Below, piece by piece: positions 44,964 through 64,000 of a stretch of 64,000 nt of DNA. The notes beneath the pieces were generated by a model that worked only from the letters and a program-made list of their open reading frames with translations, was not told the DNA's origin and did no database searches. Origin of the DNA: Deferribacterales bacterium (GTDB lineage: Bacteria; Chrysiogenota; Deferribacteres; Deferribacterales; Geovibrionaceae); NCBI GenBank assembly GCA_050253075.1, contig JBFWJS010000005.1:115237-179236 (forward strand), given 5' to 3'. The translations under genes and the position numbers were made by a program. Every line of letters starts with the position of its first letter. The first letter of the stretch is position 1.

Positions 44964-46070
44964 TCAGATCACAGGCACGCCGAACCTTTTCGCCACCTCA
45001 GCCTTATCCACATCAAAGCCGAGCTCTATAGCATCTTTTATAACATCCCAGTCGGCCTCCACCTTCATATCCAGTATGAAAGCAGGCACAGGCGCATCGC
45101 CGAAGTTCAGATCGACTATCCATCTAAGCAGTGTCCTCGTAAGCGTCTCCGACAGCGCCCCCGCTATCTTATAGCTCTTTGTCTGCAGTGTCTCGAGATG
45201 CTGCTGAGCCAGAGAATACGAGCCGTTTGTGGATGTGTCGCTGGTGAGTATCTCGCCTGTCACGGCCTTTGATATCTCCGTATTGCATATGTTCACCAGC
45301 TCGGAAAAGTCCGCCGATGTACCCTTTGTCTCCAGCACCTGCACGCTGTCCACATTTGCCAGAGCCACAGCTGCATCTGACTGTATATTATAAAGATTTT
45401 CTGCCAGTTCTTTTGCCCTTGCCCTGCTGTCTGCATCGTCTATGGAGTCAAATAGAGCGAGCACCGTCGGCACGCCGTACTTCTCTGCCACTGTCAGCCA
45501 ATACCTGAACCCCGCCTTTTTAAACATCCACGGCCAGTAGCATTTTGACAGAACGGGTGTGCCGTAGGGGTTCTCATTCTTCGGGCTGTTTCGGTGTACG
45601 ACAAACTTGTACTCCTCCTCCAGAGGTATAGACACGGCGCCGTCCGCCAGTGCCAGCCCGCCGTCGCTTGTGAATGCAAACCTTGAAGGCTTCCGCCCCA
45701 TAGCGTTCACGGGTATCCAAGCCCCTTCTCTCTCTTCCCATATGATCTCTATCACGCTGAAGCCGTATTCCACGGCCATCATCATATCCTGCAGAAGCTG
45801 TTTCACGCCGAGCCCGTTCAGACAATCCTTCACAAATGCGGCTATACCTGCGGATTCGTCGTCCATATCCTTCGCACGCACGTCCCACTTCATGGCAAAG
45901 ACCCTGTCTTTCAGCTGTTCGAGCTTTGCGTGTATGTGGGCATCCTGAAGCATCTCGTCAAAGATGCTCATGTTCACCCCTGTCTTACCGAAAAGCACGT
46001 CTGGGTTTGTCATCATCCCCATAGACGTCACGTCTGTATTCTTTGTCAGCACACTTGTTAATCTGCTCAT
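44964..46070 (-). CDS. phage portal protein, DUF935 / Mu gp29-like
   Basis: DAHIHA, AVEYGFSVIEIIW, NPYG.P.L..CYWPW.FKK, EKYGVP, NTEISKAVTGEILT, HLE; 368 aa. Confidence 0.88.
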   Translation of the reverse strand: MSRLTSVLTKNTDVTSMGMMTNPDVLFGKTGVNMSIFDEMLQDAHIHAKLEQLKDRVFAMKWDVRAKDMDDESAGIAAFVKDCLNGLGVKQLLQDMMMAVEYGFSVIEIIWEEREGAWIPVNAMGRKPSRFAFTSDGGLALADGAVSIPLEEEYKFVVHRNSPKNENPYGTPVLSKCYWPWMFKKAGFRYWLTVAEKYGVPTVLALFDSIDDADSRARAKELAENLYNIQSDAAVALANVDSVQVLETKGTSADFSELVNICNTEISKAVTGEILTSDTSTNGSYSLAQQHLETLQTKSYKIAGALSETLTRTLLRWIVDLNFGDAPVPAFILDMKVEADWDVIKDAIELGFDVDKAEVAKRFGVPVI

Positions 46071-46085
46071 ATCTATCTCCTTTCA

Positions 46086-47486
46086 TTAATATTTTTTGAA
46101 CATATCTCCGCTCTTTCGCCCCGCTCCCGAGAATGACGCCGAAGGCTTCACCCGTCTTTCCGTCTGGCTGAGAGCCTGTGTCATGGCATCCACCATGTCG
46201 TCATTTTTCCCGCCCGGGAATAATGCCGCCTCGTCCATCAGCTCCTCGGAGAACTTTGCCCCCCGTTTCAGATAGACATTCCCCGCCTCGAGCATAGGCG
46301 TGACGGCTATCGCCCTCGCTGTCTTGCTCCCCTGCGGATTCACGGGGATGAGCCCCTGTATCTCATTTTTCAGAGCGGATATCACAGCGGGGCCGTTCGC
46401 CTTATCTTCAATGTATTTAGCACGTGCCTGCGGGTACTTTTCCGTCATCATGCGCAGGGCTCGCAGGGCAGACATAAAGTCCATCCGCCCACGCACCTGA
46501 TCCACAAGGTATCTCTCCGTGCCCCGAATCCCCCACACCTGACCGACCACAAAGTCTGAGCCGTCACCTCCGGAGAATGTCATATCCCACGACTGCACCA
46601 TCTGCTCAAAGGCAGGCTCCGCATCGTAAAAGCGGAACCACGACTTTTTGAAAACTGCTCCGTCCTCGGGGGCTGGTCTCTGCTGATAGAGTGCGTTCCA
46701 AACACGGGAGCCCACTGCGGAGCGTATCTGTGCGAGGGCGTCTTCGTCATATTTCTCAGCCCAGAGCGGTTCACCCACGGTACGGAATGCCTCGTCCTCC
46801 TCTGCTATTGCGGGGAAGCTGACCACCTGCCAGCCGTCTCTGTCGGCATTCAGCAGTCTGCCTGCGAGGTCGTCCTCGTGCCAGCGGGTGAGTATGACGA
46901 CTATCCGTCCCCCCTTCTCTATCCTTGTGTACAGGGTGGACTGATACCAGTCCCACACCTTGTCACGATAGTTCTTGCTGTCGGCGTCCTCCTGATTTTT
47001 AAACGGGTCGTCGATGATGAGCAGGTCGCCCCCCATCCCCGTTATCGAACCGCCAACCCCCGCTGCGACATAGCCGCCGCCGTCTGCGGTCTCCCATCTG
47101 TCTGCTGCCTTTGACCTTCCGCTCAGCCCAGTGCCGAACGTCAGGCGGAATTTTGGATCTGCTACGATATCCCGCACCTTTCTGCCGAAGTTCTCCGCAA
47201 GTCGGGCACTGTATGATGTGGCTATCACCCGCTTTGTCGGGTGTCTGCCCAGAAACCAAGCGGGGAAACGCACGGATGCCAGCTCGCTCTTCCCGTGGCG
47301 CGGGGGCATGAGTATCATCAGCCTGCCGTCAGTCCCTGCCTCCAGCTCGGTGAGCTTATCCGCCAGCAGTCGGTGGTGCCAGTTCGGCTCGTATCCTCTG
47401 TATGTCAGCTTACAGAACGGGATGAGGCTCTCTCGGGCGAGCTTCAGCGCATAAAGTTTTTCAAAGTTTTCACTGCTTAGCTTCAT
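46086..47486 (-). CDS. phage terminase large subunit (ATPase plus RNase H-like nuclease)
   Basis: Walker A MPPRHGKSE, Walker B LIIDDP, TRWHEDDL, ALYQQRP, nuclease SWD...D...IEDKANG...DDMVDA. Confidence 0.93.
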   Translation of the reverse strand: MKLSSENFEKLYALKLARESLIPFCKLTYRGYEPNWHHRLLADKLTELEAGTDGRLMILMPPRHGKSELASVRFPAWFLGRHPTKRVIATSYSARLAENFGRKVRDIVADPKFRLTFGTGLSGRSKAADRWETADGGGYVAAGVGGSITGMGGDLLIIDDPFKNQEDADSKNYRDKVWDWYQSTLYTRIEKGGRIVVILTRWHEDDLAGRLLNADRDGWQVVSFPAIAEEDEAFRTVGEPLWAEKYDEDALAQIRSAVGSRVWNALYQQRPAPEDGAVFKKSWFRFYDAEPAFEQMVQSWDMTFSGGDGSDFVVGQVWGIRGTERYLVDQVRGRMDFMSALRALRMMTEKYPQARAKYIEDKANGPAVISALKNEIQGLIPVNPQGSKTARAIAVTPMLEAGNVYLKRGAKFSEELMDEAALFPGGKNDDMVDAMTQALSQTERRVKPSASFSGAGRKSGDMFKKY

Positions 47487-47919
47487 GCATTATCGCTTTG
47501 GCATCCTCTACGCTCAGGTTATCCAGCTCACTCATAAGGTCGGCTATATTACCGTCAGCAGATTCGTCTTTGAGGAATTCGTCGGGGGATTTGCCTATGC
47601 AGATGTCCTTATAGTTTTTCACTGTTTTCGAATGCAGTTCCACATCACGCAGATTCTCACACTCGTTGAGGAGTACATCCGCCTTTTCCAGCCCTGCCAT
47701 TGTGCTGTTGCATATGGCATCCAGCATCTTCACCCGATGATTTTTCAGCCTTCGGATTGTCTTATCCGTTTCGGGGCGTTTCCATTTTTCGGCATCGGCT
47801 CTGTTCTTCACCGTCTCTGTTTTTATGCCGTATTCCTCTGACAGCTCGGACAGGTCATATACACCGTCCTCGTATTCACTGCGCATGGATGTCCATGTTT
47901 CCTTCGTTATTCTGCCCAT
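47470..47919 (-). CDS. probable terminase small subunit
   Basis: N-terminal HTH-like W..MR.EYE.G...L.EL...YGI..TV..RA..EKW; overlaps the terL start; GGAG RBS. Confidence 0.7.
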   Translation of the reverse strand: MGRITKETWTSMRSEYEDGVYDLSELSEEYGIKTETVKNRADAEKWKRPETDKTIRRLKNHRVKMLDAICNSTMAGLEKADVLLNECENLRDVELHSKTVKNYKDICIGKSPDEFLKDESADGNIADLMSELDNLSVEDAKAIMHEAKQ

Positions 47920-47943: not shown

Positions 47944-47997
47944 GGATTCTACGCAGAAATTTGAATTAATATGTTTAAACACGATAGACTTAGAAAC
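47944..47997 (-). promoter_or_regulatory. shared late-type promoter motif, copy 1 (packaging operon)
   Basis: Minus strand GTTTC-N14-TTAAACATAT-N16-GTAGAATCC; same spacing as 57792-57845. Confidence 0.7.
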
Positions 47998-48031
47998 ACA
48001 GATCGGTGAAAATTAATACTTTCGTTTTCAA

Positions 48032-49171
48032 ATGAACACAGGTGATATATACTATTTAAAACGAGAGTCAGAGTGTGCCTATATGATCAGAAAAGTTATT
48101 ACAGACGTCTATGAAGACATCCATTTCAGTGATAAATACGACACTGAGCAGATAAACCTGCTGCTGAAAGAACTGGACGTGCGCCATGCGCATTTCTCCG
48201 GGCTGCCTATCGTGCCCGAGGTTCGCAGCTTCCTTAACGGCGAGCTCCGCACACAGTCCATATACTCCACCGCCGCAATCGGAAAGCCCGATATGGAGGA
48301 GGAAGACGTGCGCAATTTCCTCGCAGGGAACCCGCACGAGCTGGACGAGACACGCTCCCGCATAGTGAATAACATCAGGCGCACATTTGAATTCGTCGAT
48401 AAAAACAGAACGACTTTCGAGCTGACCACCGAAAACCTGCGCAAGCTCCACATCATGCTCGTGATAGACACGGCTGAGGGGCTCCCCGGCGTATACAGAT
48501 CTAAGGACCGCTCAGAGGTAAACATAGACTATAAGCCCCCGAGGGGCTCTATGGACGAGCTGACCAAAGAATTCTGCGACTGGTTCGCCAGCTCCGACAT
48601 GCAGAAGCATCACCCTGCCGTTAGGGCGTTTCTCGCTCATTACCACATAGGTATGCTTCAGCCTTTCAGCAACGGCAACGGGCGTGTGGCACGCACTCTG
48701 GAGGCTATCGTGCTGGAGAACGCAGATATGCCGTACCTCACCCATGTGCTGTCTCAATATTATAAAAGAAACAGAAAAGACTATATAAAAGCATATATCA
48801 AAAACGAAAAGACGGGCGGATTCGACATGACGCCGTTCCTCGCATTCTGCCTCGAGGGCTCCGTGCGTGCGTATAAGCTGATAACAGACATGGCTGTCAC
48901 AGGGCTCCGTGCCATCAGCGTGCGTGAATACATCCGCAGACTCAGGACAGAAAAGAAAATCACCGAACGCCAGCGTGACCTGCTGGAGATAATATATCAG
49001 TACGACAAGCCATTCGACCTGCACGACCTGCTCACGAACCCTATATTCGCAGGGCTCTACCGCAGTGTGACAGAAAATACCGCACGCAATGACATAAAGC
49101 GCATGAAAGAACTGAGCCTCGTGACACAGACTCAGGGCGGATATATCTTTAACCGCTTCGTGCTCGGATAG
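48032..49171 (+). CDS. degenerate Fic-domain protein with C-terminal winged HTH (Fic-3)
   Basis: PGVYR, YKPP, motif LQPFSNGNGRVAR, C-terminal ITERQ...TENTARNDIKRM. Confidence 0.85.
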   Translation: MNTGDIYYLKRESECAYMIRKVITDVYEDIHFSDKYDTEQINLLLKELDVRHAHFSGLPIVPEVRSFLNGELRTQSIYSTAAIGKPDMEEEDVRNFLAGNPHELDETRSRIVNNIRRTFEFVDKNRTTFELTTENLRKLHIMLVIDTAEGLPGVYRSKDRSEVNIDYKPPRGSMDELTKEFCDWFASSDMQKHHPAVRAFLAHYHIGMLQPFSNGNGRVARTLEAIVLENADMPYLTHVLSQYYKRNRKDYIKAYIKNEKTGGFDMTPFLAFCLEGSVRAYKLITDMAVTGLRAISVREYIRRLRTEKKITERQRDLLEIIYQYDKPFDLHDLLTNPIFAGLYRSVTENTARNDIKRMKELSLVTQTQGGYIFNRFVLG

Positions 49172-50068
49172 GTGCTTATGTATCTGTGCTTCGACATAGG
49201 CGGGACAAACATCAAATCCTGTCTGACAGACGAAAACGGCAAATGCCTCGATAAGATATCTATACACACACCGAAGGATTACGGCGATATCCTCTCGATA
49301 CTCATATCCTCTGCCGAACGTATAAGCGACTTCAAAGCCTGTGCTGTAGCCGTACCGGGGACATGCTCGCCTTCATCGGGCGAGGTGCTCTTTGCTCCGA
49401 ACCTGACAGCACTGAACGGCAGAAATATCAAGAACGACCTCGAAAAGGCTCTGAACAAGCCGGTATTCATAGAAAACGATGCAAACCTCGCCGCTCTAGG
49501 CGAATACTACTTCATTGAGAAAGATAAGGTGAAGAACATGATATTCCTCACCATAGGCACAGGGCTCGGAGGCGGAGCAGTGCTGAACGGAGAACTGCTC
49601 ACATCAGACATCTCCCTCTTTGAAGCGGGGCACATAAACCTCATCCCCGACGGACGCCTCTGCGGATGCGGTAAAAAGGGATGCCTCGAAACATACGCCA
49701 GCATCGGCGGGATAATGAAGACATATAAAGAACTCTCCGCAAGGGGTGAGGCAGACAATGTGAACCAGATATACACCGCTGCCAAAAACGGCGACAGGGC
49801 AGCACAGCTCACCTTTGAAGTTTTCGGCGGACAGCTCGGCATAGGCATGGCTAGCCTCGTGAACATACTGGTCCCGCAGAAGATAAAGATAGGCGGAGGC
49901 ATATCCGAGATGGCAGACGCCTTCCTCCATCACACCATGAAGATCTTTTCGAAAAACATATATCCCGCTTATAAACAACGTGTTTCCATAGAGCTCTCCG
50001 CTTTGAAAAACGAGGCAGGGCTCAAAGGGTGCACAGCCCTCTCCATCACTAATCTTTCGTCAAAATAA
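49172..50068 (+). CDS. ROK-family sugar kinase (glucokinase-like)
   Basis: DIGGT, ENDANLAALGE, TIGTGLGGG, EAGH, CGCGKKGCLE. Confidence 0.92.
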   Translation: MLMYLCFDIGGTNIKSCLTDENGKCLDKISIHTPKDYGDILSILISSAERISDFKACAVAVPGTCSPSSGEVLFAPNLTALNGRNIKNDLEKALNKPVFIENDANLAALGEYYFIEKDKVKNMIFLTIGTGLGGGAVLNGELLTSDISLFEAGHINLIPDGRLCGCGKKGCLETYASIGGIMKTYKELSARGEADNVNQIYTAAKNGDRAAQLTFEVFGGQLGIGMASLVNILVPQKIKIGGGISEMADAFLHHTMKIFSKNIYPAYKQRVSIELSALKNEAGLKGCTALSITNLSSK

Positions 50069-50117
50069 ACCTTGTGTTTTCCGCTCTATATGAAATATTA
50101 TCCCTACGGAGCACAAA

Positions 50118-50930
50118 TTGGAAAAGCGACTTATCACAGGCATCACACCTACGAAATGCCTTAACTGGCTATACAGAAAGAACCCCGAAGTTTATGTCTA
50201 TCCACCCGCCGTTGCGGATGTCGACGGAGAGTATTATCAGCTGAACAGCTTCGAACATTACTCTCAGGAGTACTTCATCATCGAGGCAGACAGTGTGGAA
50301 GATGCGCTGAACATATCCGTAGACCTCTACGGAGCAGCCAGCCTGAACACCACAGAGCTGGCTTACCTTACCGCTGTGTGCGATAGACAGGAACTGGATA
50401 AGTCAAAGATAACAGCATACGAAACCCACGGCATAAAGGGGAAGAAAAACTTTGAAACCCTGAAGGCCATCACATTCATGTGCCCGTCGCTGCAGAAATA
50501 CATCTCGGTGAAAGCTATCCCGCTGAAGACCATAGCCGTCTTCGACAAGCTCGAGAAGGATTTCCGCAGGTTTGTGAAAAACACTATCGACGACAGAGAG
50601 CTATCCGTGCAGGATTTCCGTAAGATGGTGAATCTGCTGTTTGACATGCAGTCGAGCGCAACTCCGGAAGACATGGGCCCCGACCTGCTCAAAAAACTGG
50701 CCGAAAAGAAAGATATGACACGCATCAGCTTTATGAAGGAGATGCAAAACCTCACTAAGGGTTTGAGTGCAAACGTCTTTTCAGAAAACAACTTTGAAAC
50801 GGGCGAGCTGACATTCAGCATAAAGGCATCAGGGATGAAAGAGCTGAAAGAAAAACTGGAAGCTCTGTCAGAAGACGAAAATAAAATAGAAAGAATATAC
50901 AGGTTTTTGGATGAGCAGGATATTTGTTGA
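50118..50930 (+). CDS. hypothetical protein, possibly a degenerate ParB-like partner of the radical SAM gene
   Basis: Long ORF with a GGAG RBS that overlaps the next gene; C-terminal NFETGELTFSI pattern; no certain family. Confidence 0.6.
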   Translation: MEKRLITGITPTKCLNWLYRKNPEVYVYPPAVADVDGEYYQLNSFEHYSQEYFIIEADSVEDALNISVDLYGAASLNTTELAYLTAVCDRQELDKSKITAYETHGIKGKKNFETLKAITFMCPSLQKYISVKAIPLKTIAVFDKLEKDFRRFVKNTIDDRELSVQDFRKMVNLLFDMQSSATPEDMGPDLLKKLAEKKDMTRISFMKEMQNLTKGLSANVFSENNFETGELTFSIKASGMKELKEKLEALSEDENKIERIYRFLDEQDIC

Positions 50931-51990
50931 TAAAGCGGCGGCTGAAAGCGAAGTAGCCGCAAACGCCATGAAGAACTGCTCCGACGTCAGCTTTGTCGGC
51001 AGTGCCGAAGAAGTCCCCGATAACAAGAACTGCATATATATCACCGCAGGCCCAAACACCTTTGTACACAGGTGCCCCGCCACAAAGATATACAGATGCT
51101 GTGACTACTATGTGGCAGATGTAGCCGAGGGATGCCCCTTCGACTGTACATACTGTATATTACAGTCATACCTGAACCACGAATATATAAAGGTCTATTC
51201 AGACTTTGAAGGGATAAAGAACGATATACTGAATCTGCCGAAAGACAGGTTTTACCGGCTGGGCACGGGCGAACTCTCCGACAGCCTCGCCCTCGACCAC
51301 ATATTCAACTTCAGCGGATTCATAGGCGAAACAGTGAATAAAGCGGAAAACCTCCTCTTCGAGTTCAAAACCAAATCCGCAAACATAAAGAACCTCCTGA
51401 ACATAAACCCGAAGAATATGATGGTCTCATGGAGTATGAATCCACAGGAGATAATTGATAAAGAAGAGCACGGAGCGGCAAAGCTGGACAACAGGCTGAA
51501 AGCCGCAAACCTCTGCTCCCAGTACGGATACAAGATAGGCTTCCACTTCGATCCGCTGATATACTACGACAATTTCGAAGCGGGATACGCCGAAGTCATC
51601 AGAAAGATGGCAGAGTCTGTCCCCGAAAGCTCTGTGGAATACATATCTGTCTCCACTTTCCGCTTCATCCCCGAGCTCTTAGACATTGTAAGGGGCAAGT
51701 TTGACCGTTCGCTGCTGCTCCAGAGCGAATACGTGAAGACAATGGACGGAAAGATGCGCTACTTCAAGCCTGTTCGTGTACACATGCTTGACTTCTTTGT
51801 AAAAGAGGTGCGTAAATACTGGAAGGATGTTTTCATATACTTCTGCATGGAGCATGAATCCGTCTGGAAAAAGATAATGAAGTACGACCCCGGTGAGCGT
51901 GAAGACTTTGAAAAGTTCTTCCCATGCCAGATAAAACATACGCCTGACAGCAGGATAACTCATTCTGAACAAGTAGAAGAATCTGAATAA
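50911..51990 (+). CDS. spore-photoproduct-lyase-like radical SAM protein
   Basis: GCPFDCTYCILQ, GTGELSDSL, EFKTK, GFHFDP, DGKMRY, YFCME. Confidence 0.88.
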   Translation: MSRIFVDKAAAESEVAANAMKNCSDVSFVGSAEEVPDNKNCIYITAGPNTFVHRCPATKIYRCCDYYVADVAEGCPFDCTYCILQSYLNHEYIKVYSDFEGIKNDILNLPKDRFYRLGTGELSDSLALDHIFNFSGFIGETVNKAENLLFEFKTKSANIKNLLNINPKNMMVSWSMNPQEIIDKEEHGAAKLDNRLKAANLCSQYGYKIGFHFDPLIYYDNFEAGYAEVIRKMAESVPESSVEYISVSTFRFIPELLDIVRGKFDRSLLLQSEYVKTMDGKMRYFKPVRVHMLDFFVKEVRKYWKDVFIYFCMEHESVWKKIMKYDPGEREDFEKFFPCQIKHTPDSRITHSEQVEESE

Positions 51991-52011
51991 GAAAGATAAA
52001 TAAGGTCACAT

Positions 52012-52036
52012 ATCCTTCGCATCTGCTCAGGATGAC
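52012..52036. repeat. half copy of the GTCAT...ATGAC repeat
   Basis: atccttcgcatctgctcaggatgac resembles the right arm of the 32209 copy. Confidence 0.55.
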
Positions 52037-52110
52037 CCGGCGAGCATTACATTTCCCCTTTTATTAAAAGCGGAATCTGCTTATAATATGCCCGTTTCGA
52101 TGGAGGAATA

Positions 52111-53301
52111 ATGGGTTTTTTCAGCATATTTAAAAAGAAGAAAGACGAGGTAGCCGAGCAGGAAGAGCAGGTTATCGAAAATGATATAGAAACCGAAGAG
52201 GAAGGCGAAGAGCCCGAAGCTGTCGAGGTGCAGGCGGAAGAACCTGCCGCAGTGGAAGAAGCTACAGACGAAGAGCCTGAAGATGATGAATCCGAGGACG
52301 AATCTGAGGACGAAGATGAAGAGGAAGAGCAGTCCGAAGCTGTAAAGCAGGACTATGCCGAGAAGCCTGCCGTGAAGCAGGGCTTCTTTAAAAGGCTGAA
52401 AAAGGGTCTCTCCAAAACATCCGGCAAGCTGGTCGGCGGGATGGAGAGCATCTTCACAGGGAAAAAGAACATCGACGAAGACCTCCTAGAAGAGCTGGAA
52501 GAGCTGTTCATCACATCCGATGTGGGCGTCCCCACCACAATGAAGATCATAGACAACGTACGCAGCGAGCTTTCCCGCAAGGCTCTGAAAGACCCACAGG
52601 AGCTCAAGGCCGAGCTTAAAAAACAGATCAAAAATATTCTCGATATACCGAACGACCTGAACACCACCGAAGATAAGCCATACGTGATAATGGTGCTCGG
52701 CGTGAACGGCGCAGGAAAGACCACAAGCATCGCAAAGATGGCTAAACGCTTTAAAGAGCAGGGACTTTCCACATGTCTCGCCGCAGGGGACACATTCCGT
52801 GCTGCCGCCATAGACCAGCTGTGCGTATGGGCAGACAGGGTGAAAGTACCCGTGGTGAAACAGTCCGAAGGGAGCGACAGCGCCGCTGTCATATTCGACG
52901 CTATACAGTCCTGCAGATCAAAGGGTATACAGGTACTCATTGCGGATACTGCGGGAAGACTGCATAATAAATTTAACCTGATGAAAGAGATGGAAAAGAT
53001 AGTCCGCATATGTAAGCGGGAGCTGCCTGATGCGCCGCACGAGATACTCCTTGTGCTGGATGCTACCAGCGGACAGAACGCCCTCTCTCAGGCACAGAAA
53101 TTCCACGAAAGCGTGGGCATCACAGGGCTGGTACTCACAAAGCTGGACGGCACAGCAAAGGGCGGTGCGGTCATCGGCATCGTGGACGAGCTTCAGATAC
53201 CTGTGAAATTCATAGGTTTCGGTGAAGGGATAGACGACATGAAGCCTTTCGATGCGGAAGACTTCGTCAATGCCCTCTTTGACAACGACACGGAGAACTG
53301 A
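52111..53301 (+). CDS. ftsY: signal recognition particle receptor FtsY
   Basis: Acidic N-terminal region, GVNGAGKTT, DTFRAAA, DTAGRL, TKLDGTAKGG. Confidence 0.97.
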   Translation: MGFFSIFKKKKDEVAEQEEQVIENDIETEEEGEEPEAVEVQAEEPAAVEEATDEEPEDDESEDESEDEDEEEEQSEAVKQDYAEKPAVKQGFFKRLKKGLSKTSGKLVGGMESIFTGKKNIDEDLLEELEELFITSDVGVPTTMKIIDNVRSELSRKALKDPQELKAELKKQIKNILDIPNDLNTTEDKPYVIMVLGVNGAGKTTSIAKMAKRFKEQGLSTCLAAGDTFRAAAIDQLCVWADRVKVPVVKQSEGSDSAAVIFDAIQSCRSKGIQVLIADTAGRLHNKFNLMKEMEKIVRICKRELPDAPHEILLVLDATSGQNALSQAQKFHESVGITGLVLTKLDGTAKGGAVIGIVDELQIPVKFIGFGEGIDDMKPFDAEDFVNALFDNDTEN

Positions 53302-53308
53302 TCATAAC

Positions 53309-53647
53309 ATGCGCTTCCTATTTATTTTAATTGCTCTGGCATGCTTAATGCCTAGCCAAGCCCCCGCACAGGAGAATATCCGCGGGATATTCTTTGAAAA
53401 CGATTCACCGCACATGCTCGGCGTACGCCTTATCAACAGATACAGCAGAGTGGAGGATCACTATCTTTTCGACCCGAACAGCAAAGAGCACGTGGACACA
53501 AAGGTCGAAACATTCACACTCTCTGCACAGCTGATAACACCCAGCTATCAGATAGACTGCTGTGAATGGACACAGATACACAGCGGCGACACCGTCACCA
53601 TAGAGTATCTGCCCGACCGCGACAGATGCTGGTGTAAGATAAAATAA
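53309..53647 (+). CDS. small exported hypothetical protein
   Basis: Signal peptide MRFLFILIALACLMPSQAPA; OB-fold-like GDTVTIEY. Confidence 0.65.
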   Translation: MRFLFILIALACLMPSQAPAQENIRGIFFENDSPHMLGVRLINRYSRVEDHYLFDPNSKEHVDTKVETFTLSAQLITPSYQIDCCEWTQIHSGDTVTIEYLPDRDRCWCKIK

Positions 53648-53899
53648 TCAGTCTATATTCATACAGCTCCGCTCCTGAAGGAACTCCTCAAGGCTCTTTT
53701 TCGGCACACGCCATCTGCCGTTTCCGTCTATGCTGGTGTTCCATGCGATGAGCTTTGCGCTTTTTATCCATCTGCGTACCGTGATGTGACTGACCTGAAG
53801 TATCTTCGCCACCTGATATATGGTCAGGTTGCTCCCGGGCATTGATTCCACCTGTCTGCTTATACTATCCTCATTCCATACTTTGCACGGAGCCGACAT
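53648..53899 (-). CDS. HTH_17 / excisionase-type (MerR-like) DNA-binding protein
   Basis: LTIYQVAKILQVSHITVRRWIKSAKLIA...GRWRVPKKSLEEFL; GGAGG RBS before the ATG at 53899. Confidence 0.85.
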   Translation of the reverse strand: MSAPCKVWNEDSISRQVESMPGSNLTIYQVAKILQVSHITVRRWIKSAKLIAWNTSIDGNGRWRVPKKSLEEFLQERSCMNID

Positions 53900-53915
53900 A
53901 CCGCACCTCCAAATA

Positions 53916-54000
53916 ACATAATTTATTTGTACATAAATACACAATATGCATGTATTTTTCAACACATATTTTCTGTTTGTTTTTCACAGAATATATCTGT
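53916..54000. promoter_or_regulatory. four ACA-N9-TGT operators between divergent HTH genes
   Basis: ACATAATTTATTTGT 53916, ACACAATATGCATGT 53939, ACACATATTTTCTGT 53962, ACAGAATATATCTGT 53986; spacing 23, 23, 24 bp. Confidence 0.8.
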
Positions 54001-54011
54001 ATATATTATAT

Positions 54012-54371
54012 ATGGGTGTAGGACACAGATTAAAAGAGCTCCGCAGAGAGCTGAAGATCAGTCAGAAAGAACTAGGAAATCTGCTGAATGTCGCACAGCA
54101 GGTGGTCAGTTATTATGAAAAAAGCGGTAATATAGATGCGTCAAAACTGTCCATCATCTCTGAAAAATACAGCATAGATATCAGATACTTCTTCGAAGAC
54201 AAACCTTTAAACTCTTACAGAGGCACAAACCTTCAGCTTAATTCCTCTTCAGACTTTATAATCCCCGCCGGATGGGACGACATACTCCATGAAATGGCGG
54301 AGATAGAATACGGCAAGGTGCGGATAATAGAATCTGTTGTCAGAACATTGATTAAAGAATTTAAGAATTAA
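54012..54371 (+). CDS. XRE-family (cI-like) repressor
   Basis: GHRLKELRRELKISQKELGNLLNVAQQVVSYYEKS HTH. No SD, so possibly leaderless. No S24 autopeptidase domain. Confidence 0.88.
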   Translation: MGVGHRLKELRRELKISQKELGNLLNVAQQVVSYYEKSGNIDASKLSIISEKYSIDIRYFFEDKPLNSYRGTNLQLNSSSDFIIPAGWDDILHEMAEIEYGKVRIIESVVRTLIKEFKN

Positions 54372-54404
54372 CACTTTAAATTTCATACGGGGGAAAACCG
54401 GCTG

Positions 54405-56513
54405 ATGGATATTAGCGGCGAAAACGCCCCATTTATTTTACGTTTTTCTAAATACATGTATCGAACAAACCCGAGAATAACAAGAGGAGGACCGCCCAGA
54501 ACAGCCTAAGGCCAGCCTCTGAATATAGATAAAGCCGTAGCAGGCATACGAAATGCGCATACAGCATACTGCCGTTTCGACTTTAATAAAGACCTCCCAC
54601 TTTACTCACTGCTGACCTTGAAAAAAGGCTCACTCTCAAAGTCGAACAGATACCACTTCCTGAAAACCGCAGATATAAAGCTGACGGGCAGTTTGTCCCC
54701 TGAGGACCTCATCTTTGCGCTAAAGGACGATGCAGATATCTCCAGATTTGAAAACATACTGCGCTACAGTCGAAACATAAACTTCCGAAAGTCTCTGACC
54801 CATATGTCAGACATAAGAGCCCTACTGCCGGAGGATAAGCTGAAAAACTCAGTTACCGAAGGCGACATAGTAATCCAGCTGTTTAATAACGACAACTACG
54901 GCAAACTACTCCACTTTCTCAGAGACGGGCTGAATATAAGAGCAGGCGACATCTTTTCCGTAGGCAGTCTGAACATCATAAAAGCAAATATAAACGACCT
55001 GTCTAAGCTGGAAACTCTAGCATCACACTCTCTGATAAGGTCTGTGGAAAGCGCTCACAGCATCCATCTGGAAGAGCATTATATAAGGCACGCTCCGCTG
55101 CCGCTGAACTGTGTGAAAGAACGAGCCCTTCAAAAAGCATATCCCAAGGCCGCCCTGATAGACTCAGGCGTGGCATCTGACTCCCTGCTGAAAGAGTGGG
55201 AGATATCCACGGAAAGCTACATCCCTGATGAAAAGCGAAATCCAGCCCACGGCACTTTTGTCTGCGGGCGAATGCTTCAGGAAGGGGAAGAGTTCGGCGG
55301 GATACTGTACCTGAACGCTGAAATGATGCCTTCGGACGGAATTTTATCCATCAGCGATTTCTACAGAAACATGACAGACATCCTGCAGAAATACTCAAAG
55401 ACCATAAAAGTTTATAACATCTCCATGGGTACATCTGCTCTGCTCCGAGACGAATTTTCCTACTCCGCATACATACTGGACACACTGCAGAAGGAATATG
55501 ACGTGCTCTTCATAATATCCGCAGGCAACTGTGCACCTGACGGGGAGGCTCCGAGGTCACTCACTGCACCTGCCGAAAGCGTACACTCCGTCAGCGTCGG
55601 TTCCGTGGCGCACACAGACACAAATATCCAGAAGAAGCACACCCCATCCCTTTTCACAAGGCACGGCCCGGCACCGCTCGGATTCATAAAGCCCGACATC
55701 GCCGCATACGGAGGGGCTCATGCTGAGCATTTCGGCAGGCTGAAACCTGTGGGAGTATTCAGCATCGGCGTGCAGAACGAGCTGGCAGAAGACATCGGAA
55801 CCTCCCACGCCGTCCCTATGGTCACATCAAAAGCGGCAAAGCTGTATCACCAATACAGCCATGCATTTAAAAGCCCCGACATAACAAAAACATTGCTGAT
55901 ACACGATGCATTCCTAAAAAAAAGCTCCAAAGAGCCCGACATATACTGCGGATACGGCATATCTGCCGATGGAGACAATGACGAAAACCATGTAACATAC
56001 ATCCATCAGGGGCTGGTAAAGCCTGAGCAGATAGTAGAACTGCCCGAGATACCTATCCCACCCGATATGATAAAGGACGGAGCCGTCTATGGAGGCATCG
56101 TCCTGACACTTGTTTATAAGACACACGTGGACATAGCTTTCCCTCATTACTACTGCATGACAATGCTGGATATATCACTCGGGTATTACGACGGGGGGAA
56201 GTGGATATCTGTGATGACGGCGAAAGATACGGCGGGGCTCCCCAAAGGAAAAGATGCACAGGAGCTCTTTAAATGGCAGCCTGTAAAAGTGTTCAGCAGG
56301 GTATTTAAAAATAAGAAAATGCCCGACAAGCTATTACTAAGAATAATACCGTCTAAAAGAGATTTTTATGACAAAATGGAAGACATTTCATACTCATTCG
56401 CTATATCTTTTGTGAGCAAAGAGGAAAACCTGTTGAAAGGTATTCTCGACAGACCGTCTGATTTTTCACACATTCTCGAATCTGCCCATGACTTGTGGAA
56501 AACATGTGGATAA
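54405..56513 (+). pseudogene. IetS-like S8 (subtilisin-like) serine peptidase with an in-frame TAA at 54507-54509
   Basis: Triad IDSGV / HGTFV / GTSHAVP and oxyanion SAGN are intact in the 54618-56513 ORF. The same frame extends to the ATG at 54405 (MDISGENAPFILRFSKYMYRTNPRITRGGPPRTA*GQPLNIDKAVAG...) with only one stop. Confidence 0.6.
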
Positions 56514-56692
56514 TAAAAGCGTTAATTAGCCAATAAACCAACACTTTTCAACAATACAATAAAAAAACCTTATTTATCAATTATATAACAAAAAACCCCG
56601 CAAACACGGGGTTTAGGTTGTCAAGCACTTTTTTTTCAACAAAATTTTGGAAAACATGTTTACAAAATAGTCAGAAACCTTGTGTCTTCACA
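56462..56692. promoter_or_regulatory. DnaA-box cluster
   Basis: Exact TTWTNCACA matches at 56462(+), 56494(-) and 56505(-); one-mismatch boxes at 56545(+), 56633(+) and 56646(-); AT-rich context. Confidence 0.7.
56590..56614 (-). terminator. probable terminator of the TPR gene
   Basis: AAACCCCG/CGGGGTTT stem with a T run on the minus strand. Confidence 0.55.
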
Positions 56693-56752
56693 GTTTCGAC
56701 AAAACTGTTCATTTTTTGACCATTAAAAAAAATCATATTTTAACGGTAAAAA

Positions 56753-57706
56753 TCACCACAATCTGAGCTTTGTACCTTTTTCGTAATTTTGTATGTCGTA
56801 TCTGAAATCTTCTTTCTGAACCAGATCCTGTGTCTGAGCTATTGCTTCGTCCAATACCTTTATTGCGTTTTCAAAATCGTCGGTCTCGGCATATGCCGCA
56901 GCCATCACTTCCGCATAGTGGACAACGTTCAGGTCATAGAGTTCTTTTGCTATCTTTACGGCTTTTTCGCCGTTTCTGTATGATTCCAGAGGGTTTGTGG
57001 AATATACCCATGCGAGCATGCGCTTCGCCTCGAGGTTCGTCTTGTCTATTTTAATGGCCTTTTCAAGGTCGTTAACGGCCTGATTTGCGTCTTTCTGCTT
57101 ATAGAACACCTTCGCCCTGAGCAGATAAAGATCAGAGTTTTCAGGGGATTTCTGCATGGCTTTCAGGGTGTATGTCTTTGCCTCGTCATACTTGCCCATG
57201 TTGAATAACAGATCGCCCATAGCAACGAGGAAATCTGCGCTCTCTCCGCCCCATCTCTCGGCACCTTTGAGGTCCTTTGCCGCCTCTGCATAGTCGCCCA
57301 TGGCCACATGTGCTTTTGCTCTCTCCACATATGCCACAGGGTATTTCTTCCCTGCTTTATCTATGACGGTTCTGAAATCTATCACCGCATCCTTATAAAA
57401 GCTGAGTTTCACGTATGCACGTCCCCTTTTCAGGTGATATTTAGCATCGCCGTGGTTTCTGATGGCTTTTGTATAGTTGTTTACAGCCTCGCCGTATCTG
57501 CCGAATGCGTAGTCTATATCCGCAAGTCCTTCATAGTAATAATCCGAATGAACAGACTTCGTAACATTCTTTTCATAATTCTGAACCGCTTCTTCGTATG
57601 TCGGCGCTTTCAGCGCAGCATCGAGCCCCGCCGTATACTCTTCCTGATTAACAGTACAGCCGGCAGTCATAAGAACAAGCGAAAACAAAGCAATCAAAAC
57701 TCTCAT
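56753..57706 (-). CDS. TPR-repeat lipoprotein
   Basis: Lipobox MTAGC, several TPRs, C-terminal LAWVYST.P..YRNG..A motif; GAGG RBS before the ATG at 57706. Confidence 0.85.
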   Translation of the reverse strand: MRVLIALFSLVLMTAGCTVNQEEYTAGLDAALKAPTYEEAVQNYEKNVTKSVHSDYYYEGLADIDYAFGRYGEAVNNYTKAIRNHGDAKYHLKRGRAYVKLSFYKDAVIDFRTVIDKAGKKYPVAYVERAKAHVAMGDYAEAAKDLKGAERWGGESADFLVAMGDLLFNMGKYDEAKTYTLKAMQKSPENSDLYLLRAKVFYKQKDANQAVNDLEKAIKIDKTNLEAKRMLAWVYSTNPLESYRNGEKAVKIAKELYDLNVVHYAEVMAAAYAETDDFENAIKVLDEAIAQTQDLVQKEDFRYDIQNYEKGTKLRLW

Positions 57707-57791
57707 CAAAGCACCTCTCTGGTCGTGTCTAAGTGAATACAATACCTTTTATTAGATTCCATTGAAAGAGTAAAGTTCAGCCCCCACAGCC

Positions 57792-57845
57792 GTTTCAGGT
57801 TTAACCGCCCTTAAACATATCCATTATTTCATTCCTGTACCATCC
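57792..57845 (+). promoter_or_regulatory. shared late-type promoter motif, copy 2 (head/tail operon)
   Basis: GTTTC-N14-TTAAACATAT-N16-GTACCATCC; same architecture as 47997-47944. Confidence 0.7.
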
Positions 57846-57875: not shown

Positions 57876-58568
57876 ATGAAACTGGAACTGGCGAAAACCG
57901 GAAACCATAACGGCATCACCATAACAGAAGAAGACCTGAGAGACATGGCAGCGACCTTTACAGGCGATGTGCCCGTCACAATAGGTCACGAGGCCGACGA
58001 CTCCATGCCCGCATACGGCTGGGTCACCGCTCTAGAAGTGTCCGAAGACGGACAGACACTCACAGGCGAACTGGAGCTGAACGAAGAGCTCCAGCAGGCT
58101 ATCGCAGAGGGACGTTACAAGAACTGGAGCATAGGCGCAGGCAGAAACGCAGACGAGCAGATGTATCTGCACCATGTGGCGTTCCTCGGCGCTGTCCCCC
58201 CGATGATAAAGGGGCTGAAGCTCATCGAGATGGGCGACAGGTCAGACATCGTCACATTCGCCATAAACGGCGGATGCTCACTCACCCTCTCCGATGCGGA
58301 GCTCTCCGAATACGCATCACTGCGTAAGGAAAAGAAGAGCGCACTCATCAAAAAGCTCTCCGACGCATCAGCGGGGAAGATCCCCTTCGGCAAGCGTGAG
58401 GAGCTCATCAGATTCGCAGACTCTCAGCTCTCCGCAGGCGGCGAAGAGATAGTCTCCATGCTGGCGGAGATATTCGAAAGCGTGAAACACCCAGTGAGAG
58501 AAGGGATATCCCAAGCCATCAGAACAAAAAACGCTGAAACGTCCGTAAACGTATTCAGCAAAATCTAG
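57876..58568 (+). CDS. Mu gpI-like head maturation protease / short scaffold
   Basis: PVTIGH...PAYGWV...GRYKNWSI...YLHHVAFLGAVPP.IKGL; AAGGAGG RBS. Confidence 0.82.
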   Translation: MKLELAKTGNHNGITITEEDLRDMAATFTGDVPVTIGHEADDSMPAYGWVTALEVSEDGQTLTGELELNEELQQAIAEGRYKNWSIGAGRNADEQMYLHHVAFLGAVPPMIKGLKLIEMGDRSDIVTFAINGGCSLTLSDAELSEYASLRKEKKSALIKKLSDASAGKIPFGKREELIRFADSQLSAGGEEIVSMLAEIFESVKHPVREGISQAIRTKNAETSVNVFSKI

Positions 58569-58577
58569 GAGGAATAA

Positions 58578-58940
58578 ATGGCAACAGTAAACGGCGTTAT
58601 CGGTCAGCAGACCATCACAGACAAATCTGTCATCGACGACAGACACCCCGCAGTGATCCGCTTTATGCAGTTCAAAGCAGACAACGGCATCATCGGAGCA
58701 GGCGAGATACTCGCACTGGATTCTAACGGCGACGTGGTCTCATACGACCCTGCATCAGGCGGAACAGAGGCATCACCTATCGGCGTGTGCTCATCACAGA
58801 CAGACACGGCGAAAGATACCGCAGGCGGAGTCATCATCCATGGAACAGTAGTAGGCGCAAGCCTTCTCACCCTCGGCGTAAAAGCTGTCTCCGCAGAGAT
58901 AGAAGCCCTCGAGGCAAACACACTCATCTGGTCATTCTAG
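58578..58940 (+). CDS. head decoration protein
   Basis: 120 aa between protease and capsid genes; AGEILA...PIGV...VIIHGTV pattern. Confidence 0.7.
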   Translation: MATVNGVIGQQTITDKSVIDDRHPAVIRFMQFKADNGIIGAGEILALDSNGDVVSYDPASGGTEASPIGVCSSQTDTAKDTAGGVIIHGTVVGASLLTLGVKAVSAEIEALEANTLIWSF

Positions 58941-58952
58941 GAGGATACATAA

Positions 58953-59936
58953 ATGATACAGCTTGATCTCAGCAGATATTTCACAACAGACTCACTCATC
59001 AAAGCACTCACAAACATGCCGGAGCTTAAATCCCCCGTCATGGACAGCATCTACACGGCGGACAAACGCAGAAACCACCCTCTGCCGACAGTCTCCGTCA
59101 GCGACCTCCAACAGGCGGTTAAGAACATAGCTATCACAAAAAGAGGCGGAGAACCTGTGCCTGTCTATGAAGAAAGCATGAACATCACACACATCGAACC
59201 TCAGCCGTTCAGACCTTCCGAAAGACTCAACGGAGTGGACGTGAATAACCTCAAGCTCCTCGACGAGACAGGCGTGGAGCTCCTCGTAAATAACAAGATA
59301 GACAGACTCCGCCGCATCGTCAGAGCATCCACAGAGGCTATGGCGGCACAGTCGCTCACAGGCTCTATCGCATACCCTATGGCTATGGACGGCGGATACG
59401 GCACATACAGCGTGGACTTCGGCTCCACACTCAGCCACTCCGTCGGCACTGCATGGACAGACTCGGGCATCACACTCGACGCCGTCCTCGCAGACCTCAT
59501 CAGCATGGAGGCAAACATCCAGGCTGAGACACACTACGGCTCCGACATCCGCTTCTGGGCGGGTCAGGACGCCTTCATGGCTCTGGCAAAGATCGTCCAG
59601 GACGTCAACAACACAGGCATCACGGGCATGATAGACGCAAGAACCATCAACATAGCAGGATTCAGGGTAGAGCTTCAGAACAGCTCATACACAGACCTCG
59701 CCACAGGCTCGCAGACAAAGGTCGTGGATACTTCAAAGGTGATGGCGTTCGCCGCCGATGCACCTTTCGAGCTGGTCTACTCTGTCATAGACGACCTCGA
59801 CAGCAACCTTACTGCCATGCCTTTCTTCGTAAAGAGCGTGAAAGACCCGAGGTCCTCAAGCATCGAGATCATCGCAGAGAGCAAACCGCTCCCTGTTCCG
59901 TTCACAAAGGGTATTTGCTGGGCAACAGCCGTATAA
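58953..59936 (+). CDS. major capsid protein (lambda gpE-like family)
   Basis: 327 aa; RG...P, LRRIV..TEAMAAQSLTG, VDFG, C-terminal ESKPLPVP. Confidence 0.82.
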   Translation: MIQLDLSRYFTTDSLIKALTNMPELKSPVMDSIYTADKRRNHPLPTVSVSDLQQAVKNIAITKRGGEPVPVYEESMNITHIEPQPFRPSERLNGVDVNNLKLLDETGVELLVNNKIDRLRRIVRASTEAMAAQSLTGSIAYPMAMDGGYGTYSVDFGSTLSHSVGTAWTDSGITLDAVLADLISMEANIQAETHYGSDIRFWAGQDAFMALAKIVQDVNNTGITGMIDARTINIAGFRVELQNSSYTDLATGSQTKVVDTSKVMAFAADAPFELVYSVIDDLDSNLTAMPFFVKSVKDPRSSSIEIIAESKPLPVPFTKGICWATAV

Positions 59937-60002: not shown

Positions 60003-60359
60003 ATGCTGATAGACATATATGAGCTTCAGGAAATGATACAGACAGAGGACTACGACGCCATATGCCGTGGTGACGATGCCGTTGCGGAAGAATCACTGGA
60101 ATCTGCCCGTGCGTATGTAGGACTGGCCGCTGAGAAATTCGGCATTGAATACGACGAGGAAGACCCAGCCATAAGGCTCGCCGTGAAAAAGTGGGCTCTG
60201 GCGCAGATGTACATCTTCGCAGCGGAGTGGGAAACAGCCCAAAGGTATAAGGACGAATGCAACGAAGTGCTCGCACCACTTGCCCCCGCATCCGAACAGG
60301 GGGGAAGAGTCTACTCTTCGACCGTTTCGGGGAGCACCTCGTGGAAAGGATATTACTGA
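60003..60359 (+). CDS. head-tail connector, Mu gp36/DUF1320-like
   Basis: 118-aa helical protein right after the capsid gene; A..YV...A..LY...RY pattern. Confidence 0.62.
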   Translation: MLIDIYELQEMIQTEDYDAICRGDDAVAEESLESARAYVGLAAEKFGIEYDEEDPAIRLAVKKWALAQMYIFAAEWETAQRYKDECNEVLAPLAPASEQGGRVYSSTVSGSTSWKGYY

Positions 60360-60730
60360 TGAAGACAGCTCAGGAGATAAAGCAGGCGATAGCCGACTCG
60401 CTGAATACCTGCGGCGTGTTCGACTCTGTGCTGACACCGTCCGACAACCGAAAGGATGCGACCATAATGCGTGAGCCGTCTGCTGCGGTCTATTACAGCG
60501 GATGCGTGATAAGGGACGATAACGGCGTGCAGGTGACAGAATACGCATACATCATACGCATGAAGTTCCTGAAAATAGGCGTAAACGAAACAGCCGACGA
60601 CATAGAACTCGCCGTTAACGCCCTGAAAGAGCTGGAGCCCGCATCCCTCGCCCAGTCGGGCAAAACAGACACAAACAGCAGATCGGCATCATACACCATA
60701 GACATAACATTTGCGGGGTGCAGGGGATGA
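60359..60730 (+). CDS. probable tail completion/terminator protein (gp37-like)
   Basis: TGATG-coupled start MKTAQEIKQAIADSL; PSAAVYYSG; position in the operon. Confidence 0.55.
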   Translation: MKTAQEIKQAIADSLNTCGVFDSVLTPSDNRKDATIMREPSAAVYYSGCVIRDDNGVQVTEYAYIIRMKFLKIGVNETADDIELAVNALKELEPASLAQSGKTDTNSRSASYTIDITFAGCRG

Positions 60731-61095
60731 TACGCATATCAGACATAACACTCCCAAAGTCCGCAGTGTGGGCAAACGAGATATCAAACAGCACACATAA
60801 AACCGAGCGGACAGCATGCCCCTACGGGACAGAAGTCATCTTTGCAGACATACAGGATGCTGAGATAGACATATACATACCAAAGATATCTGGCGAGCTG
60901 ACCCGTGCGGACGTGCAGAGGCTGAAAGCTCTAGCAGACGGCACAAACGAGATAAGCATAAACATAAACGGCACAGACAAAACGTGCGTCTTCAGGCATT
61001 CGGACACCGCACTCGACCTGCACCCGATAAGCCCGAAACAGACACAAACGCACACCGACAGCTACTACGGATATATAAGGCTTCTGGAGGTTTAA
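60727..61095 (+). CDS. tail-tip (distal-tail-like) protein of Mu-like siphophage type
   Basis: ATGA-coupled start MIRISDITLPKSAVWANE...TRADVQRLKALAD...VFRH...IRLLEV. Confidence 0.55.
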   Translation: MIRISDITLPKSAVWANEISNSTHKTERTACPYGTEVIFADIQDAEIDIYIPKISGELTRADVQRLKALADGTNEISININGTDKTCVFRHSDTALDLHPISPKQTQTHTDSYYGYIRLLEV

Positions 61096-63302: not shown

Positions 63303-64000
63303 ATGTTTATACAATGCGGAGCACCGCTTTTAAACATATCTCTGTCCTCACAGTCAGGGCTGAACGGCAGTCTGAGCATCACAGCCCCCTTTGTGATAGA
63401 CGGCAGTGTGGAGCTTGCCTCCGCACTGTCCATTTCGGACAGCCTGAACCTGCCTATACCGGAGGGGCTGAACGGCGAGCTGTTGATATACGCACTCTTT
63501 GCCGAGGTATACAGAGGCTCGGATAATATCCCCGTCAGTCTGTCTGCTATGGATGAAGCCACTGTCGCCTGTAATACGGTGAACGCACTCGCCCTTGATG
63601 GAGCCGTATCTATATCCTCAGAGCTGGCAGAAGCCTTTGAGGGCAGTCTGACATCCTTAAACACCATAGGCGAGTATGCACTCAGAGCATCAACTGACAT
63701 CAGGATACCGTTCGGGCTGTATGACACATCAGGAAGCTGTGAAATACGCCTTCCCCAAACCACAGCCCACGTCATAAAGGACGAGCTGGAAGTATATGCA
63801 GACGGCATCGACATCACAAAGCTGTTAAGGAGCGCAGAGATAAAACTCTTCGGCGGAAATGAACCGATCAGGCTGAAAGCATTGCTGAAACCTCTGAAAA
63901 ATACGCCGAAGTACATCGACATCTTCATCAACGGTGAGGCATACGCCTTCCGCATTGATACGGCGGAGCATTCCTCTGAGCAGTGCACCCTGACTGGCAG
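63303..64000 (+). CDS. further phage tail-region protein (partial; runs off the right edge)
   Basis: ATG 63303 immediately after the previous stop (MFIQCGAPLLNISLSSQSG...); the frame appears open to the window end. Confidence 0.55.
   Translation, partial: MFIQCGAPLLNISLSSQSGLNGSLSITAPFVIDGSVELASALSISDSLNLPIPEGLNGELLIYALFAEVYRGSDNIPVSLSAMDEATVACNTVNALALDGAVSISSELAEAFEGSLTSLNTIGEYALRASTDIRIPFGLYDTSGSCEIRLPQTTAHVIKDELEVYADGIDITKLLRSAEIKLFGGNEPIRLKALLKPLKNTPKYIDIFINGEAYAFRIDTAEHSSEQCTLTG

Follow-up and report, generated by a model that had tools for sequence, protein, structure and literature searches.

The 64,000-nucleotide stretch analysed here (the window) comes from a Deferribacterales bacterium of the family Geovibrionaceae and carries two phage-type operons, one for DNA packaging (terS-terL-portal) and one for head and tail proteins, that are preceded by the same promoter motif. 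This motif is probably the late promoter of a phage-derived DNA-packaging system that resembles a gene transfer agent (GTA), is inherited within the family, and has its promoters activated by a small winged helix-turn-helix (wHTH) protein. The packaging, head-tail and lysis units of this element all start with a single predicted promoter type, which in one genus (g1) also precedes a ribbon-helix-helix (RHH) gene. As judged by comparative sequence analysis, nearly all genomes hold the element genes intact and under selection, and a putative divergent switch formed by the wHTH gene and an XRE-family gene, with an array of three to four operators, is kept alongside the particle genes. The comparison covers a family set of 16 genomes in four genera (g1 to g4), with 11 genomes in g1 and g4 and five in g2 and g3. 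The genome that carries the window (G000) measures 3.04 Mb.

A preliminary description of this DNA had reported two 54-bp strings with equal internal spacers upstream of terS and of the head protease gene, and these are indeed present at positions 47997-47944 on the minus strand and 57792-57845 on the plus strand. Their GTTTC-N14-TTAAACATAT portion has two exact matches in the window and likewise two in all of G000, and allowing up to two mismatches yields three matches in the window compared to 0.15 expected. Among 205,120 pairs of upstream regions in G000, only three share an exact 10-mer located 17 bp before a TAnnAT hexamer, and the terS/protease pair is one of the three.

The conserved core emerges from 33 orthologous promoters, namely those of terS, the protease gene and the lysis genes in the 11 g1 and g4 genomes. 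It reads C-N4-TTAAACATAT-N17(18)-TAnnWT, which is a phased 10-bp direct repeat followed by a -10 box. With numbering that presumes a -10 hexamer at -12 to -7, C(-34) is invariant in these promoters, as is C(-44), a position that was not selected when the pattern was built, and C(-54) is present in 19. Because C(-44) lies exactly one helical turn before C(-34), we interpret the motif as a phased direct repeat that covers the -35 position. The box is TTAAACATAT in 22 of the 33 promoters and carries one or two changes in the others, the spacer measures 17 bp in 29 promoters and 18 bp in four, and the -10 element conforms to TAnnnT. The GTTTC pentamer corresponds to the third repeat of the array, and the GTTT...AAAC inverted repeat that had been proposed is not conserved (GTTTC is exact at its position in four of 33 sites). 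Conservation of the motif in orthologous regions, by contrast, is borne out, with all 33 sites kept while spacers diverge.

In g2 and g3 the motif takes a variant form, CAY-N4-TRACAA-N19-TATATT, with C(-44) in nine of ten sites. The pattern built from these genomes' own sites matches only two element promoters per genome in four g3 genomes and one in G004, with zero control matches. A weight matrix trained without G000 gives its highest scores, 31.3 and 27.7, to the two sites of the window, followed by 18.5 for the next one; the lysis and RHH sites are not in its list. A loose ACA-N20-TATATTY pattern was set aside because its matches remain at the control level. The motif was also considered as an ordinary housekeeping promoter class and rejected as such: near TAnnAT hexamers, TTG-type -35 elements peak at 16-17 bp (20 and 18 compared to 3-12 elsewhere), and CATAT shows no peak. 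That the motif is the promoter of a dedicated regulon is, in our judgement, very likely.

A search pattern built from the terS and protease sites gives 28 matches in the 11 g1 and g4 genomes (five in the reversed control). Sites of the training type account for 21 of these, and four precede one orthologous locus, on another contig, that encodes an endolysin and a holin-like protein. This lysis locus stands alone with the motif in all 11 genomes. In G004 and G007, the holin-like gene is located inside the head-tail operon together with a different, M15-like endolysin, compared to a lysozyme-type endolysin in g1 and g4, indicating that a relocated lysis unit carries its own copy of the promoter. 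A refined pattern has exactly four matches in G000, upstream of the terS-terL-portal operon, the head-tail operon, the lysis locus and the RHH gene. Across the 11 genomes it yields 46 matches, of which 36 belong to these four unit types; the other 10 compare to 12 in the reversed control. The lysis site of G013 is missed by it. Inspection of non-regulon matches (seven loci, five from g1 and g4 and two from g3, plus two more) identified no phage-type gene start, and the match at C5:219830 was discarded as a regulon site because it overlaps the start of an unrelated gene.

The additional sites that had been anticipated upstream of missing phage genes were thus found before the lysis genes. There is no promoter to find for a tail tube or tape measure, because these genes themselves were not found (a single tube gene is described below). 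The preliminary view of the modules as a co-regulated regulon rather than a remnant is in agreement with the extra lysis-gene site in all 11 g1 and g4 genomes, and with genes that are vertically inherited under purifying selection. The RHH protein is possibly a feedback regulator or a packaging accessory; a role as family-wide activator was rejected, since our query found it only in the four g1 genomes.

The predicted lysis mRNA begins with a leader of 73-112 nucleotides, counted from the predicted +1 position, in 10 of the 11 lysis loci, and this start fits the -10 assignment. In nine loci the leader is predicted to fold into a structure that ends just before the ribosome binding site and consists of a closing stem around two inner hairpins (z -1.3 to -6.3); the closing pair varies as G-C, A-U and C-G. 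The leader has no match in Rfam near a gathering score. Its predicted fold suggests that it may delay lysis.

The element genes are spread across the whole family. Capsid orthologs occur in all 16 family genomes (four genera, 61-88% identity) and in none of 45 other genomes of the order; TerL, the large terminase, occurs in all 16 and in none of 52 other genomes of the phylum at 1e-40; and the genes for the wHTH protein and an S8-family protease are likewise found in all 16, with weak matches only outside the family. Ratios of nonsynonymous to synonymous substitution (dN/dS) were determined for 10 chosen genome pairs, with saturated or identical pairs dropped. They are 0.013-0.064 for the capsid gene (10 pairs), 0.033-0.061 for terL (nine), 0.033-0.063 for the portal gene (seven), 0.014-0.033 for the wHTH gene (five) and 0.025-0.34 for the XRE gene (seven), compared to 0.020-0.036 for the reference gene smc (seven). 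Structural genes overall span 0.013-0.23, with the decoration gene reaching up to 0.23. A tree of eight concatenated element genes has 11 of 13 splits in common with that of smc, with genus-level groups all identical, and single short element genes have 7-11 splits in common with it. The element genes measured, which do not include S8, thus appear to be vertically inherited under purifying selection, following the host tree.

The element is inherited as three to five separate chromosomal loci flanked by host genes, and its gene order varies between genera; in g2 and g3, the packaging, head-tail and switch loci are located 30-78 kb apart. No match to the tyrosine integrase family (PF00589) was found within 10 kb of the loci in five genomes, a profile search that did not extend to serine integrases, transposases or replication families. 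IMG/VR lists as a viral contig a sequence that is 98% identical to the head-tail region, so this element is probably being entered in catalogues as prophage DNA. Our literature search found no description of the element, although it left subscription journals largely uncovered and supplements uncovered, so prophage catalogues could list these loci.

The wHTH and XRE genes are divergent, with the S8 protease gene behind the XRE gene, in all four genera. The gap between them contains AC[AG]-N9-[TC]GT palindromes, four in 14 genomes and three in two. The strict form, ACA-N9-TGT, occurs 51 times in these gaps compared to 0-21 times for other spacers, and the array is the sole such cluster in G000. 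Two palindromes are also present at the protease promoter in 11 of the 12 g2, g3 and g4 genomes (one in the twelfth), with zero or one in g1, and terS promoters mostly have none. The XRE protein carries a QQ-x-x-S helix that we take to be like that of the 434 repressor, a reader of ACAA-N6-TTGT. From these features we infer that ACA-N9-TGT is the operator read by XRE and that XRE represses the wHTH gene. The S8 protease resembles IetS (E 7e-91). Its usual partner IetA was not found next to it; a search of five genomes with one phage ATPase query gave IetA-like matches only in G002, away from the element. All 16 genomes have the protease gene behind the repressor gene, although the copies of G000 and G001 are interrupted. 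The protease may act in defence and be co-expressed with the repressor, or it may serve as an anti-repressor.

The best candidate for an activator of these promoters, and a likely one, is the 83-amino acid wHTH protein encoded opposite XRE. Its structural model (pLDDT 80) matches BldC with a root-mean-square deviation of 1.2-1.5 Å over 52 residues (prob 1.0), and also matches RacA, P2 Cox, Xis and RdfS, with an extra N-terminal helix as in RdfS. Residue R43, which aligns with BldC Arg30, is invariant in 15 of 15 sequences. The recognition helix is SHITVRRW in all 11 g1 and g4 genomes and NPLTVKRW in all five g2 and g3 genomes, and so changes along with the motif variant. According to PMC5859096, BldC oligomerises head-to-tail on direct repeats, with Arg30 reading one invariant C:G pair per repeat, and PMC11963761 describes promoter activation by RdfS-type wHTH proteins. 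Four viral relatives of the wHTH protein (39-41% identity) sit in unrelated phages.

Late promoters of the Mu C/Mor and P2 Ogr kinds have a -10 element without a canonical -35, plus an activator site. The preliminary description drew this analogy, and in outline it stands: the element promoter has a -10, no canonical -35 and a putative activator site. In detail it fails, since the site is a direct repeat over the -35 position with no conserved dyad. Mor itself was rejected as the activator, because the sole Mor gene in five genomes tested lies in an unrelated Mu-like prophage of G000. That prophage (G000:C1:586000-619400) is transposable and apparently complete, with genes for a contractile tail, Mor and a tape measure. 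Its head module is a distant relative of that of the element (capsid 35% identical), a similar second capsid is present in only one other genome, and it has no match to the motif.

The particle genes are listed in Table 1. A tail tube gene (phrog_807) was found in one of 16 genomes (G004:C2:287117-287815), and G004, which keeps the tube and still has no tape measure, is a natural intermediate. No tape measure was seen in the clusters read, and a search of G002 and G007, both single-contig genomes, with two Pfam profiles gave nothing above the cut-off. In comparison, all 10 phage contigs inspected, out of 12 that share the tip module, carry an open reading frame (ORF) of 982-2431 amino acids upstream of the tip genes, which we name a tape measure by size and position only. 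The head-tail operon runs beyond the window to G000:C5:184961, and its tail-tip genes are without stops in most relatives examined. A 3+3 model of the terminator and the Dit-like protein scores 0.66 compared to 0.00 for the best control, with at least 95% of contacts agreeing between runs and partner pLDDT of at least 76. Of 157 solved pairs 116 reach the docking mark, as do 2 of 215 mismatched ones, although these figures are only roughly valid here. Dit and tail tube share a fold, and hence the docking result may reflect likeness to solved terminator-tube stacks. A comparison of the Dit-like protein with PDB sequences gave no match.

The N-terminal HTH region of TerS, the small terminase, drifts in the family (identity 0.38 compared to 0.82 in the coiled coil), and this poor conservation fits a relaxed specificity. 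The gene for the 112-amino acid protein follows the portal gene in G004 and G007 and is therefore possibly part of the system. The head-tail adaptor label is our assumption, made from gene position. The last fibre-like gene (L001:8426-9640) has a conserved N-terminus of ~50 amino acids and C-termini that are swapped across genomes, with a beta-helix in G000 and three beta-helix copies in G003. Window positions 37430-38518 and 48032-49171 encode two Fic-domain proteins that end in an HTH; both are conserved in relatives, and the gene for one of them is divergent from terS. A near-identical AT-rich repeat starting TCCTGAAACATAAAAACCCC has at least eight copies in contigs C1, C2, C4, C5 and C7 of G000 (e.g. 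C1:198290 and C5:230166) and is probably an insertion-sequence end.

Table 1. Features of the element. Coordinates are window positions unless a contig of G000 is named; aa, amino acids.
Feature	Coordinates	Strand	Details
Late-type promoter of terS-terL-portal	47946..47993	-	C(-54) 47993; C(-44) 47983; box TTAAACATAT 47978-47969; -10 TAGAAT 47951-47946
Late-type promoter of head-tail operon	57796..57843	+	C(-54) 57796; C(-44) 57806; box 57811-57820; -10 TACCAT 57838-57843
Portal, Mu-type	44964..46070	-	PF06074, E 2e-86
Large terminase, terL	46086..47486	-	
Small terminase, terS	47470..47919	-	PHROGs terS, E 4e-5
112-aa protein	53309..53647	+	hydrophobic N-terminus; 9/16 family genomes, 0/7 g4
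BldC/Xis/Cox-like wHTH protein, 83 aa	53648..53899	-	candidate activator; PF12728; 16/16 genomes
ACA-N9-TGT palindromes, four (53916, 53939, 53962, 53986)	53916..54000	.	putative repressor operators
XRE protein, 119 aa, putative repressor	54012..54371	+	invariant QQ-x-x-S helix
IetS-like S8 protease	54405..56513	+	no adjacent IetA; TAA at codon 35 (54507), then 631-aa open frame with D/H/S motifs
Head maturation protease	57876..58568	+	phrog_976, E 6e-29
Head decoration protein	58578..58940	+	
Major capsid protein	58953..59936	+	PF03864
Probable head-tail adaptor	60003..60359	+	no family match; in 7/7 relatives examined
Tail terminator	60359..60730	+	lambda gpU fold; Foldseek E 1e-6
Dit-like protein	60727..61095	+	phrog_4408; label from homologue position in phage contigs
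Conserved tail-tip-region protein, 322 aa	61096..62064	+	
Fibre-like protein, 409 aa	62072..63301	+	shorter in g2/g3; not found in G003 cluster
Hub/Tal-like protein, 546 aa, start	63303..64000	+	YqbQ on 11-14% of cluster members, a lead only
Tandem-HTH XRE protein, 273 aa	G000:C5:187605-188441		S24-like tail, appears to lack catalytic Ser
Endolysin + holin-like unit	G000:C7:63272-64036		motif and conserved structured 5' leader
RHH gene, 47 aa	G000:C3:158356-158565		same promoter in 4/4 g1 genomes; adjoins tRNA gene

In the mechanism that we propose, XRE bound to ACA-N9-TGT would shut off the wHTH gene and, in three genera, would also directly repress the head-tail promoter. Upon failure of repression in a few cells, the wHTH protein would stack head-to-tail on the 10-bp repeats marked by C at -34, -44 and often -54. 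These repeats would stand in for a -35 box, and the wHTH protein would activate the housekeeping sigma holoenzyme at the TAnnAT -10 element. The folded leader on the lysis mRNA would hold back lysis. The terminase, with its drifting DNA-binding domain, would pack host DNA into heads. The tail tip would dock straight onto the terminator to produce a stubby particle. We lean towards particles that carry host DNA between cells. A more specific version we consider less likely than not: a family-wide, independently domesticated GTA in the form of a tubeless siphovirus without a tape measure, its tail tip set directly on the terminator, controlled by a lambda-like XRE/wHTH toggle that was retained, with a repurposed excisionase-like wHTH protein as its sole late activator and an orphan IetS-like protease as the inducing anti-repressor.

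Several observations weigh against this interpretation. For the activator, the structure matches of the wHTH protein are weak by E value (0.015-0.13, with none at or below 0.001; profile E 0.03), and the TTAAAC-type repeat is unlike the AATT-N4-C repeat of BldC in its spacing. The match between recognition helix and motif variant is not independent proof, because the change took place only once, at the deepest split of the tree. At the terS site of G004, C(-44) is absent, and the G000 head-tail promoter has no intact operator. Furthermore, S8 has an in-frame stop in G000 (the TAA at codon 35, seen in two runs that are possibly the source of this DNA). For the other strains, contigs stop at this place. 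In G001, terL, S8 and a tail gene carry in-frame stops (3 of 18 element genes) compared to at most 1 of 17 housekeeping genes. A tail gene of G003 also has an in-frame stop, but stops in 2 of 13 housekeeping genes of that genome suggest assembly noise. Without a tape measure, DNA delivery is unexplained. Finally, TerS retains its HTH region, unlike known GTA TerS proteins, which PMC11841831 describes as having no DNA-binding domain.

The main rival accepts the regulon and assigns its activation to a host response regulator of the OmpR/PhoB type bound to a 10-bp tandem box over the -35 position, with the wHTH protein only tuning the switch. It holds this place because OmpR-type regulators read 10-bp tandem boxes and because four family genomes each encode 5-8 OmpR-family genes, a further point against the wHTH protein as activator. 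The RstA box TACA-N6-TACA (PMC4117788) is close to the g3 variant TTACAC-N4-TAACAA, and host regulators control RcGTA (PMC11150451). We nonetheless regard this explanation as rather unlikely, since the units behind the four G000 sites comprise no response-regulator operon and just a single gene that is not obviously phage-derived, and since the strict g3 pattern, although built from those sites, matches only the two element promoters per genome in four genomes. An activator of yet another kind, one of the other family-restricted XRE proteins, is highly improbable. The 273-amino acid tandem-HTH protein is encoded close to the element in all seven relatives examined, was not found in five outgroup genomes, and has two HTH domains that could span a direct repeat; however, its first helix is the same in genomes with either motif variant, and its second differs among genomes that share a variant. 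Its S24-like tail appears to lack the catalytic Ser. The 119-amino acid XRE protein fits the invariant palindromes instead.

Other explanations concern the particle rather than the promoter. The regulon could be real and its particles made, yet these could be something other than gene-transfer vehicles, such as tailless heads that borrow tails from helper phages, decoys, or particles for killing or adhesion. Tail hijacking by capsid-forming satellites has precedent, the tube gene is present in 1 of 16 genomes, no tape measure passes the cut-off in G002 and G007 where 10 of 10 phage contigs inspected have a large ORF, and the switch operon retains an IetS-like defence protease. Set against these points, the element has tip and fibre-like genes of its own, which would be superfluous for a tail borrower, and a terminase and portal under strong selection, which would be superfluous for a decoy or tailocin, and we consider this explanation unlikely. 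Simple decay of a prophage, with the motif as a relic or chance match, is hardly tenable. The in-frame stops in G000 and G001 and the loss of tube and tape measure would agree with it, but dN/dS values far below 1, a tree that tracks the host, a motif kept in three operons despite spacer divergence, and a relocated lysis locus with its own copy of the motif would not.

Compared to described systems, the element is most similar in logic to CcGTA of Caulobacter (RogA and GafYZ) and RcGTA (GafA), where a repressor silences a dedicated activator of the main cluster and accessory loci (PMC11150451). As in that description, a repressor would control a dedicated activator of scattered, split and non-self-mobile loci. 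The element differs in its phylum and phage ancestry, with a Mu-type portal, a lambda-E-type capsid and no tube or tape measure found (apart from the G004 tube), and its candidate activator is a lone 83-amino acid BldC/Xis-like wHTH protein. Its portal (PF06074) and capsid (PF03864) families are presumably different from the RcGTA types. With VSH-1, Dd1, BaGTA and VTA (PMC11841831; bioRxiv 10.1101/2024.11.20.624540), the element shares independent domestication, several loci, and a content of packaging, structural and lysis genes only. No replication genes were seen at its loci, where replication families were not searched by profile. It differs from these four in the retained, drifting HTH region of TerS and the complete phage-type divergent switch, and from BaGTA in that the latter relies on a Q-like antiterminator. 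The wHTH protein is similar to BldC, RdfS and P2 Cox (PMC5859096, PMC11963761) in fold, in the invariant Arg at the BldC Arg30 position, in phased direct repeats and in one invariant C:G pair per turn. Our literature search found no such protein serving as sole late activator of a particle system. In contrast to IetAS, the element's S8 gene has no adjacent AAA ATPase gene and follows the XRE gene; two phage records have the ATPase upstream.

According to PMC11841831, the discovery of further GTAs is hampered by their resemblance to prophage remnants, their scattered genes and the lack of a known inducer. The element described here is set apart by its readable promoter code, its wHTH activator candidate and its tubeless design. 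The motif lists the scattered parts of the element and points to the wHTH and XRE genes as one-gene handles for induction. If the interpretation is correct, a GTA-like system would be added in a phylum for which our literature search found none described. A BldC/Xis-type protein would be established as a late activator, and the element would put to the test whether a siphovirus particle that has neither tube nor tape measure can form and transfer DNA.

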